Shown here: positions 9,001 to 15,000 of the stretch, piece after piece
How positions within the stretch are numbered: position 1 is the stretch's first letter
How the letters are laid out: each line of letters opens with the position of its first letter
Assembly (NCBI GenBank): GCA_964497525.1
Contig: CAZCDT010000006.1
Coordinates: 1 to 64,000, forward strand
DNA length: 64,000 nucleotides
DNA from: an uncultured Bacteriovoracaceae bacterium
GTDB taxonomy: Bacteria; Bdellovibrionota; Bacteriovoracia; Bacteriovoracales; Bacteriovoracaceae
Direction: 5' to 3'
Program-made: the position numbers

Positions 9001-12000
9001 TAATGGAATTTAAAAATTACTTTTACAAGGAATTTTAAAAATCTTTCACAAGATCAATTAGGTTTGGAGCATCAATATATGGATTGCGATTTCCTTGAAT
9101 CATCATAACCTTATTATTTTTTTCCAATTCAAAAGCACTTACAGGATCTTCCTTGTTCCATTTTTTTAAAATTTCCTCTTCGCTATTTTCAATGCTCATT
9201 TGATATCTCGTTGCAAAATAAAATACGGCCCTTGCAATATCACCTTTTATATTTTCTTTTGGTTCAAACACCAACTCACCTCTGGAATTTGTTCCAAAAG
9301 AAGATGCATCACAGCTTGGAATTTCAATGTCTTTTACAACAACCTCTCCAAACGGGTAGTGACCTCTGGTGCTATTGGCAACGGTATCGACAGGAAACAA
9401 GTGGTGCAGATCTGATTTTTGTAAAAACTTGTCATATTTTTTACTAAAAAGGCTTTGTGGCCAACTATGCTCAATATTTAGTTTGCTTCTTTTTGTTGTA
9501 TAAAAGTGTTCACAGTAGCAATCTTCAATAAATGCTCCAGAATCATTTTTTTGCAGAAATAACTCATTATAAATCGCTCTTCTTGCTTCACCATAATCTA
9601 GTGTTCTTTGATTTTTAGAAATTGTCTCAAAAATAATTTGCCTGACAACTTCTGGATGATTTTGATTCTCTTCAATGTTTTGCACAAACTCAGTAGAGTA
9701 GTAAGTTACGTTAGCAAAAAGAGAAAAGGATAGAGAAATTAAAACACAGGCAGAAACAAGAGAATAAAACTTCATTTGGTATCTCCTTATCTAATCTAAA
9801 GAACATCTTAAGAGGATCGCAGAGATGTGAGAATCTATAAAAGAAATATTAAACTGTCTAACAAAAAAGATTAGTATTTCTTATGTGTTTAATAGTTCTA
9901 ACATGTTCCATCGCCCTTGCAACCATGTAAAAATGACAAGAGCGATATCGCACCGCGGCAAAATATGCTATATTTTATCAAATTTTTGCTTACTTTTCTT
10001 AAAGGAGTTTTCTGTGAAAAAAGAACTATTAGTCATTAGTACTTTATCTTTAATGGGAATTAATTTAGTTGCACAGGAAAAAAATAGTTACACATTAGAT
10101 GATTTTAACAAATCAATTCCGATTCATGGTGTTGCTTGGCAATCATACACCCCAAGTTTTTACTTAGGACTTGCTCCAAGAGTTGAAAATCCGGAAATGA
10201 TACACATAAGGATTGCTCGTGGAAATCAAGTGCGAGTAACAGCAATATTAGAGGCAAGTACCCTCGAAAATTATTTATATACTCTGGATAAAAGAGAACA
10301 AGTTTATAATTTATTATTTACAAATAAGGTTATCGCGAAGGCCCACAACAATACTGATGTTGAAAAATTTAGCAAAATTATAAATTCGGATAAATATAAG
10401 ATTAAAGAAATTCTTTCAAAACATGCTCAAGGAGAAATCACAAATATAGAGTTGCAAAAAGAGGCCTTAGAGGTTTTAAAAAAATTAAATCCTGGTAGAG
10501 TTTTTGAAGTTAGAGTTGATTTATCTAAAAGACTTACGGAGTGGCAGCAAAAAGATCTCGAAATGTTTTTATCTAAATCAAAATCTATAAATCGTACGAG
10601 CTTGCGCAAACAAAGTAGAGAAGTGAATGTTTTATTAAATGAAATGCTTCCAGGAAGGGTAAATATAAATCACGTAAGCGATGAAATGCTTGATGCTTTA
10701 GTAACGGTAGTTAATGATCGGTCTAGTTTTAAAAATGTAGTCTCTCTTTTTGGAGTTGTGACAAATAAAAAGTTTGATCAATTTATTAAGACAAATGACG
10801 ATCGACTTATTTTAAACATGAACGAGTTTACTGGGGTATATCCAGCAGGAACCGTTCTTGCGTCGGTAACAGATAATCAAGGTAACAATATTAATCGTAT
10901 CCGAACAACAGGAGCGATGTATTTTAAAACAAGAAGTGGTAGAGATGTTGATAATATTCATGCAAAACCTTTTTATGGCTGGATTCCAAAGCTAGATTAT
11001 GAAATGGTTGGAAATGCGATGAGTAATGGCATGCATAATCCTGCAGTTCGTTTTAATTTAAAAAGTTCAACGTTTTCTTGGCTTAATGAAAAACTAAATA
11101 TTGCACAAGACTTAAAAAATATTTGGCTTGTTGCTAGAGGTGGTGTTTCTCATGGGTGTATCAGACTGGCCGCCGGACATGCTTTAGAAATTAGAAATAT
11201 TTTGCCATCGATGCCTGAAAAAATAATGGAAGTTTTTTATCATGGAAATCTTTCAACAGACTATGATGTTTTTGATGTGGATGGAGATGGTCAGGCAGAA
11301 GTTATGGGGGTTGAATATTATGTTAATTATTCTCTAGCTGGTGGAGAAGGAGAGGCCCGATATACTGCAAAAAGCTTATCTCCAGACTCATTCAAAAAAG
11401 AAGAGTTTTATAAAAATTTATATGGTGCAAATGGCCAATTTATAACAGGTAAAGATGGAGAAATTATTTTTAATAGTCCAAGTGTTAGCTATTTTAATTC
11501 AGATGGTAATCCAAATAGTAATAGTTTTGTTGCAAAACCATTTAGTGTCTCGAATAAATTTTCAAATATAAAATTGTATGAGCAAAAATATGAGCAAGAA
11601 AAAATTCAGTTTTATAAAAAAGTGTCAGGAAATGATTTTAAGTTTATCCAAGTTTTAGGAAGAATTACAGCATGTGCTCCCGAGAATAAGGCAAACAGTG
11701 AATGTAGTGAATCCGAATTTGATAGACAATTTAAAGCTGTTTTAAATAAATAAGAGGTGCATATGAATTTTAAAAATTATTTGCTAATTATTTCTTCTGC
11801 ACTTTGTTTGATGTCGAGTGTTTTTGCTGCAGATGTTGTCGATTCTGGAGAGCGAGATAAAAAAATAAAGTCTTTATTTGCAAAAATTGAGAAGAAAAAG
11901 AAGGGGGCCTTTGGTCAAAACGTCTACGCATGTAGTGATGGTACAATTGTTCCATATATGCAGCTATCAGGAGTGATTAATCCAGCTCCTAAGGGAATGA

Positions 12001-15000
12001 TGGTCTTTTCTGCATTTAGAAATTCGGAGGCGCAAGAGTTGTCAAAAATGGGATTTAATCTTGGTAATTTATTTGCAACAAATTATTACGAATTTTTTAT
12101 GAAGCAAAAAAATGGTGAGTTGGCAGACGAAGGGATTAGAGATTACTTGCTTGATATTTTGCAAGATACTTTGATCGAAAAATTTTATATAGATAATTAC
12201 CCTCAAACAAGGCTTGCAACATCAAGAAATGTACGTGGTGTTTCGGGTATTGAACTTGAAAGTAGATATTATACTAAGATGCTGCAAGATTTTTCCAAAG
12301 TTTCCAATCCATTTGCAGATTATCTTTTGCAGTATGAGATTCAGAGACGGTTTTTTATTTCTGGAGATAGTTCTGGAAAAATTAGAGCAGATGTTGCCTC
12401 GATTTATGAATCGCTGTCTATTTCAAAAGAAGGACAAGAGACATTTTATAGAATTCGCAATGAAACTCATAATATGTTAAATAAAGGTCTTTCTGAAAAA
12501 ATAAATGCCTTTATTGCAAAACATAAAATAGAGCTTAGTGATGTTATAATAAAAAGAATGGAGAAGCTGTCTGTCGATATACAAAAATATTTTACGATAG
12601 ATAAAACAAGTATAGAGGCATTTTTTAGGAAAGTTGATAATGCAAATATTTATCGTAGTTTATTTTTACAAGATGATAGTGTCGCTTCGATTGCAAAAAT
12701 TGTTGTTGGCCTTAGAGAAGATTTTGAAAAAAATAGGAATCATGAAAACCTTCATTTGATTATTATGCTAAATCGGTTAGCAGCATTAAAAATAAAAGAA
12801 GCAAAGAGTATGTCTTTTGAGCAAGAACTAAATCTTTCTTCCTTATTGGTTGATTTAAGTTATGCATCAGGTATGTTAGAAAAAAGAGAAAGAGATAGTT
12901 TGATAAGTCGTTTGCAGCATGGAGCAAAAACGGATGAAGAGATTCAAGAATTAGTGAATTATCTTTCAAGTGCACTATGGTGGGGACAAAAAAACGTAAA
13001 ATTTATGCTTGATCCATCTCTTAATGATTGGATGATTATAAAATCAACAATTCATTCAATGGTCGATGATACGATTAGAAGTTCTCCGCTAATGCTTCTG
13101 GGTGAAAATTTATCAAGGATGCAAGCTGTACTAGCAAAAAAATTAGGTATTGCTCATAATTTTTTTGGTAAAGTAACATACTCGGGACTTAAAGGCATTA
13201 ATCCAGGTCTTTCTTTGGGAGTCTTTAAAAAAATTAGCGATACCGATGTTAGTGGCCAAAAATATAATCGCAATAATATTGTTGGCCTTAGCAACACAAA
13301 TGCGATGCTAAATCCAGTTTCAGGCATTTTAACTAATGATGAAGGAAATATTTTATCTCACGTTCAATTACTTGCCAGAAGTTTTGGTATCCCAAATGCC
13401 GCGATGTCTCAGGATGTGTACGAAGAGCTTATGAAATATGATGGCAAAGAGATTTTTTATGCCGTTACTCCAAAGGGAAGTGTTGTGATAAAATTAAAAT
13501 CACAGATGACTCAGAGCGATTGGAATATCTATAAAGAGTATAATCGTAATACAAAACAAAGTAGCGATGGTTCGTTTAAAAATAAAAATAAAATTCACAT
13601 TCCCGTAGAGAAATTAGTGTTGCAAAGTACAGCGATAAAATCTTTAAAGGATATTCGAAAAACAGATTCAGGAGTTACTTGTGGACCAAAAGCAGCTTAT
13701 CTTGGTGAACTAATGAATCGCTTTCCAGAGAATGTTTCTCGAGGGGTTGTTGTGCCATTTGGAGCATATAAGGCCCACTTTGATAAGGCCGTAGTTTCTA
13801 TACCTCAAAAACTAAAATCTACAATGAGTCAGTTTGAAGGTAAAAAGTTAGTCGAATTTGTAGATCTGTTTTATAAAGAACTCTTTGGGAAAATGGTAAA
13901 TGATACTTCTTTAACAGAAGACTATATTAATAAGTTTGTTAAAGATCGGCTAGAGATTGTAGAAGAATCAATTAAAAGAATTAATCTCGACTCGACATTG
14001 GTTGAGGAATTAAGAGTACAAATGGCCTCATTAGGGCTTTTAGATTTATCAACAAATTTAATGAGCGGAGTATTTGTAAGAAGTGATACCAATGTAGAGG
14101 ATTTAGATAATTTTAATGGTGCAGGACTTAATAAAACTATTTTTAATGTTACAACATTTGAAAAAATGCTTGCAGCGATAAAAGAAGTTTGGTCATCTCC
14201 TTTTACTTTTAGATCATTTTCATGGCGTCAAGCAATAATTGACGATCCGTATGCAGTATATCCATCCATTGTTATTTTAGAGACTGTACCTTCGCAAAAA
14301 TCCGGAGTAATGGTTACTGCAAATACAAATACTGGAAGCAAAGATTTTTTTACTATTGCAACATCAGAAGGAATTGGAGGAACTGTTGATGGAACTCCAG
14401 CTGAAACACTACTTGTGCCAATAAATTCTTCAGATGATGTAACTTTAATTTCTCAATATAAATCGAGATTGAAAAATGTAGCAAGCTCAAGTGGGATTAG
14501 TAAAGCTTCAAGTACACTAACTCCAGAGGTTTTAACCTCTGATGAATTAATGCAAATTGTTGAGGCAGGAATGATTATTGTAAAAGAGTTTGCAGCAGAA
14601 ATTAGTGCATCTGGAGACAAACTACCTTGGGATATCGAGTTTGGATTTGTTGATGGGAAACTTTATTTATTTCAATCACGTGCTTTTGTTGGTAATAGTG
14701 ATATAAAAAATATTCCCGAGTTAACAAAACTTGGAATTGAATAATTTTATTAGGACCAATAATGTATAAACGATTTTTTGTTGCCACTTGTTTAGTTATA
14801 AATACTTTTGCTCAAGCATTAGATAAAGATGTTTGTAACTTAGAAGTTATAAAGACGATAAAAAGTGTAGAAAGAAATACAAATATTAGTCTTAAAAAAA
14901 TAAATTTAATAAAGTCTGAAAGTAGTAGTAGCTACATTAGTAAAAGTTTTCTCATTCTTCAAAGTGGTAAAAATGGTGAGATTAGTGTTAATGAGGATAA

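Follow-up and report, generated by a model that had tools for sequence, protein, structure and literature searches.

A predicted exported dikinase probably related to glucan water dikinase, with a transpeptidase-fold partner, in an uncultured Bacteriovoracaceae bacterium

What an exported bacterial dikinase might phosphorylate, and where its ATP would come from, are questions raised by a single gene of an uncultured Bacteriovoracaceae bacterium. The gene occupies positions 11763..14744 (plus strand) of the 64,000-nucleotide stretch of contig CAZCDT010000006.1 analyzed here (the window) and is an open reading frame for a 993-aa protein, predicted to be exported and probably a distant relative of glucan water dikinase (GWD). 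A structure model (pLDDT 91) gave the domain order helical acceptor domain, swivel domain with His533, and C-terminal ATP-grasp domain. A Sec signal peptide, predicted by heuristic only, would comprise residues 1-22, with cleavage after V-F-A (11763..11828). It is followed by the helical acceptor-side domain (residues 23-461; 11829..13145), by the phosphohistidine swivel domain (residues ~465-582; 13155..13508; His533 codon 13359-13361) and by an ATP-grasp domain of the PEP-synthase/rifampin phosphotransferase (RPH) type (residues 619-983; 13617..14711), all on the plus strand. The first-pass annotation had listed a signal, an N-terminal half, a His swivel and a PEP-synthase-type ATP-grasp, and this layout was confirmed largely as first described.

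Residues K643, R773, E959, Q971 and R973 are kept in 120-121 of 121 full-length homologs, consistent with intact dikinase machinery; from these residues and the chemistry of the family, we infer that the 993-aa protein is a dikinase. Conserved residues of the helical domain are R208, H236 and D435/D436/R439. Here, H236 is invariant across 121 homolog rows, R439 is kept in 115 of 121, position 436 is D or E in 100 and D435 is present in 60. A word-based search with the dikinase returned two proteins only, a longer-length search with region 395-600 returned no homologs, and the ESM Atlas yielded one nameless cluster at 0.81 and nothing further. A second weak match in the same genome (C47) was rejected as a family member and reads as an ordinary PPDK. 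Promoter and terminator counts at the locus did not exceed those of shuffled sequence, and an RNA search gave no RNA match among those listed. Literature searches, which covered few subscription papers, retrieved no description of this family.

The N-terminal half had been annotated as an unknown fold. It indeed has no direct Pfam or PDB match, and a fold search with the whole model returned only generic helical bundles for this half, with PDB 9HA9 absent among the matches listed; the region is nevertheless probably a distant homolog of the GWD central domain. In potato GWD1 this domain spans residues 483-926 (444 aa, 20 helices; PDB 9HA9) and precedes the His and ATP domains, and its E900, E901 and R904 are proposed to be catalytic, assisting phosphate transfer (PMC13553574). 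The acceptor-His-nucleotide order attributed to the gene at first reading thus agrees with that reported for the potato enzyme. The relationship was approached through bacterial proteins with the Pfam domain GWD1_pHisD (PF22973), found in 6 genomes of a single-phylum sample of 301. One of these, L201, matched 9HA9 with an E value of 2.6e-94. An HMM built from the N-domain only scored 38.3 bits against the central part of another, L205, and 2.5-7.9 bits against four other GWD-like proteins; the best of 1431 background ORFs reached 12.1 bits and reversed sequences at most 1.7. L205 is linked to L201 and L202 at 25-26 bits and has no direct link to 9HA9.

Comparison of N-only with central-only alignments in HHalign gave probabilities of 71-94% (E 4e-5 to 2e-7, about 260-272 columns) with two query alignments when L205 was included and 7% with a third; when L205 was left out, values were 0.3-16% in the same register. 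Block-shuffled nulls, run for one query, scored at most 28 as compared with 45 for the real alignment. The aligned part corresponds to dikinase residues about 185-455 and is collinear, placing R208 on RIRD, H236 on KLHNN and D435/D436/R439 on E900/E901/R904 (EExxR), a motif whose helix faces the catalytic His. Homology of the N-terminal half to the GWD central domain, for which the support is transitive and moderate, is short of proven but likely. The two domains are also alike in size, that of the dikinase having about 440 aa and 20-22 helices, although no alignment is obtained for the first ~160 residues of its mature form.

Although expected to work like GWD, the protein would not be classed as a member of the GWD/PWD family because of four differences. 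The N-terminal starch-binding module is missing from 58 N-domains and 30 full proteins, whereas a control protein (L208) has one. PF22973 is below cut-off, with no match in the dikinase and E values of 0.056-0.099 in 3 of 30 homologs, and was found in none of five dikinase-locus genomes and none of 301 genomes of one phylum. The dikinase carries a predicted export signal, as opposed to the plastid or cytosolic location of GWD/PWD, and the neighbors of its family encode transpeptidase-fold enzymes and NTT/TLC carriers rather than glycogen or alpha-glucan enzymes. By contrast, among 13 proteins picked by eye, the genes of bacterial GWD-like proteins, the bridge included, adjoin those for GH57 branching enzyme, glycosyltransferase and amylase. 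These GWD/PWD-like genes in glycogen clusters (L201-L205 and L207, from G475, G566, G370, G408, G488 and G622, and L208-L213), one of them with an Ig_N_CWD1 domain, may possibly serve bacterial glycogen phosphorylation.

Export was assessed with a crude heuristic, a hydrophobic 9-mer followed by a small-x-Ala site, which 109 of 121 full-length homologs passed. This rate is clearly above background: internal Met positions passed in 103 of 1442 cases and long ORFs of the Bacteriovoracaceae genome in 277 of 780. In addition, 112 of 121 homologs have at least two Cys within residues 21-110. A stronger test than the heuristic on whole proteins is provided by 11 loci, from the phylum of this bacterium and from metagenomes, at which the dikinase is split into an N-half of 451-462 aa and a His+ATP-grasp half of 515-524 aa: the heuristic was passed by 11 of 11 His+ATP-grasp halves and 10 of 11 N-halves. 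All split forms fall in one clade and may derive from a single event. Predicted export, as first proposed, is thus well supported. Three His+ATP-grasp relatives of 660-680 aa (L006-L008), each adjoining an MFS transporter gene, have no signal by the heuristic (0 of 3). In G018, a gene for the His+ATP-grasp part alone, signal-like at its start (L003:1447-2928 / L200:8226-9707), adjoins a tandem array of leucine-rich-repeat-like genes, and no N-domain match was found in that genome.

Directly upstream, ending 9 bases before the dikinase ATG, lies a linked partner gene (10014..11753, plus strand), overlooked in the first-pass annotation, for a predicted secreted 579-aa protein of YkuD (L,D-transpeptidase) fold. 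The top 18 matches of a fold search were all of the YkuD family, and Foldseek returned no match. Its H341 and C382, which we take to be the catalytic His and Cys of YkuD enzymes, are invariant in 58 rows. The fold and these residues place the partner in the YkuD group as a predicted enzyme only; it differs from the L,D-transpeptidases and carboxypeptidases LdtMt2, Csd6, Bd1075 and DpaA in its length of 579 aa with a big helical insert, the lack of a Pfam YkuD match and its tie to a dikinase gene. Among 80 GTDB loci of the dikinase, 77 have a partner, which is either YkuD-like (24) or a long beta-lactamase-fold protein (53) and never both (0 of 80); it directly adjoins the dikinase in 70. The Ser (beta-lactamase-fold) partners retain SxxK/SxN/KT(S)G, and 104 of 114 partners have a predicted signal. 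Only 14 of 301 genomes of the phylum of this bacterium, which the names of close partner homologs suggest to be Bdellovibrionota, carry the dikinase module, and full-length partner and N-domain occur in the same 14. A complex prediction for N-domain and partner scored 0.00 ("no answer") and was weighed in neither direction.

Several further genes were observed in this context. A separate secreted beta-lactamase-fold family of ~315-330 aa, keeping SxxK/SxN/KTG, stands beside the module at L177:6810-7784 and 15 other loci, mostly with split forms, and was not found in the Bacteriovoracaceae genome. In G179, three divergent signal-bearing paralogs of ~970-996 aa keep the H236 motif (L197:8300-15786; L198:7500-10490), with no YkuD-like or beta-lactamase-fold neighbor detected. 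G240 holds a second, orphan N-domain gene (L199:6820-8268), near which neither a partner nor an ATP module lies.

The family is estimated to occupy about 1700 stretches in GTDB. Named carriers include many Flavobacteriaceae, which are polysaccharide users, together with Desulfobacterota-type bacteria, Gammaproteobacteria and Gemmatimonadota; to our knowledge, none of these are predators. Polaribacter and Flagellimonas strains are among the cultured carriers. The suggested substrate, an envelope or prey polymer, is therefore weak as a general reading in its second half, whereas an envelope polymer fits the neighboring genes. The reading that we tentatively favor is a predicted exported glycan kinase that would use ATP outside the inner membrane, most likely on peptidoglycan, together with its upstream partner. 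Peptidoglycan is proposed because the partners come from two unrelated wall-enzyme folds and no glucan genes recur near the dikinase; a sugar hydroxyl is proposed as acceptor because of the GWD homology.

An exported glycan kinase might instead act on another polymer, such as a periplasmic glucan, a capsule or exopolysaccharide, or external starch or glycogen, whose digestion the phosphate would ease. The only characterized homologs of the acceptor domain act on alpha-glucans, as far as the GWD report describes them (PMC13553574), and the abundance of Flavobacteriaceae among carriers fits such a role. Downstream of the dikinase, a gene for a 161-aa protein with a signal-like N-terminus and no family (14762..15247, plus strand, found locally only) is followed by one for a dual-specificity-phosphatase-like protein with a CX5R motif and a signal-like N-terminus (15244..15825, plus strand). 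This second gene, possibly in the operon of the dikinase, recalls the pairing of GWD with SEX4/LSF2 (PMC13666283), and its product could reverse the kinase locally; it was absent from the related loci tested and was rejected as a conserved part of the module. The lack of carbohydrate-binding modules in the N-domains and full proteins noted above, and of the recurring glucan-gene neighbors seen with bacterial GWD-like genes, also speaks against this explanation, which would moreover leave the transpeptidase-fold partners unaccounted for; we consider it unlikely, if credible. Farther along the window, a Tad/type IV pilus-like cluster with secretion ATPase and secretin was observed at 17650-21855.

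The phosphate could, alternatively, activate a stem-peptide carboxylate as an acyl-phosphate, or pass through the partner Cys or Ser, so that ATP would drive cross-linking or the attachment of proteins with no need of a donor peptide. Such chemistry would suit two unrelated acyl-enzyme folds that replace each other with nucleophiles intact. Cys-partnered N-domains share the conserved residues N53, A84, R86, N102, E139 and N237, which are not conserved in Ser-partnered ones, and the 993-aa protein clusters with the other Cys-partnered clade in its phylum by its N-domain and not by its ATP module. Acyl-phosphate chemistry was our first idea and was demoted because of the GWD link: the acceptor domain aligns with a kinase that phosphorylates glucan hydroxyls, and the literature searches disclosed no precedent. 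It now appears improbable.

Phosphorylation of a periplasmic small molecule (an antibiotic or wall fragment), in the manner of rifampin phosphotransferase and with partners that bind or hydrolyze it, is more doubtful still. Similarity to RPH is confined to the shared modules. Relative to rifampin phosphotransferase (5hv1) and PEP synthase (8a8e, 2ols), the dikinase has a reversed domain order, an unrelated acceptor domain and predicted export. It shows neither the ATP-acceptor-His order of the RPH/PigC type (53-56 bits with the NCBIfam models, cut-offs 999-1300; 53 against 999 for RPH) nor the ATP-His-barrel order and C-terminal TIM-barrel pyruvate domain of PEP synthase and PPDK (88 bits, cut-off 740).

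The supply of ATP bears on the remaining alternatives. A gene for an NTT/TLC (ATP/ADP) carrier is found at 50 of 80 dikinase loci, and at 32 of the 40 with full flanks. With custom profiles, no such carrier was detected in the 97%-complete Bacteriovoracaceae genome; of the 301 genomes in the phylum sample, 92 have an NTT, as do 57 of the 74 family members. None of the 14 module carriers of the phylum had a strong match (one weak match, E 2.8e-4), and the carrier was therefore rejected as an obligatory part of the module. The NTTs characterized according to one source are all uptake carriers of parasites and plastids, and those of free-living bacteria are described there as lacking any tested function (PMC5381601). 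Such uptake activity would suit a role in which external nucleotides are scavenged or their phosphate is moved, the carrier taking up the product instead of exporting ATP. A 5'-nucleotidase gene adjoins 3 of 80 loci; at L017, L018, L020, L173 and L174 it is divergent from the dikinase and its product could clear AMP outside the cytoplasm. However, scavenging leaves the wall-enzyme partners unexplained, all 14 module carriers of the phylum do without NTT, and we regard this role as very improbable. Least credible of all is a cytoplasmic enzyme, with an N-terminus that does not serve as a cleaved signal for export, which would accord with the missing carrier and with an E. coli periplasm that a review describes as low in ATP, with no exporter known to it and the route of ATP given as unknown (PMC7432876), but which conflicts with signals on both halves of split genes, signal-bearing partners and common Cys pairs.

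For the favored peptidoglycan reading, the following sequence of events may be envisaged. The dikinase would, on strong grounds, be exported by Sec. Its ATP-grasp domain would then split ATP to AMP and Pi and place the beta-phosphate on His533, as conserved residues and family chemistry suggest. By homology to GWD, the His domain would swing to the helical domain, where D435/D436/R439 together with H236 and R208 would hold and activate a sugar hydroxyl. The Cys/Ser transpeptidase-fold partner, to judge from gene context, may bind, trim or link peptide stems of the same wall. ATP would be delivered in most phyla by the neighboring NTT/TLC carrier; candidates in this lineage are another exporter, ambient periplasmic ATP or, as a guess, prey. 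Generalized to many Gram-negative bacteria, as ATP-fed phosphorylation of peptidoglycan sugars outside the inner membrane with an interchangeable Cys/Ser partner and ATP exported by NTTs in most phyla and obtained elsewhere, perhaps from prey, in this lineage, the proposal is possible but doubtful.

If true, it would mean that bacterial walls undergo a modification not described before, that NTTs in free-living bacteria have a task of their own, and that starch phosphorylation has a sister process in bacteria. The exported dikinase may reveal an envelope modification so far unrecognized and would widen the GWD family past storage glucans. With the split genes, constructs are at hand for the acceptor domain as well as for the ATP module, and a widespread exported ATP user with cultured carriers makes the questions of periplasmic ATP and of the role of NTTs testable.
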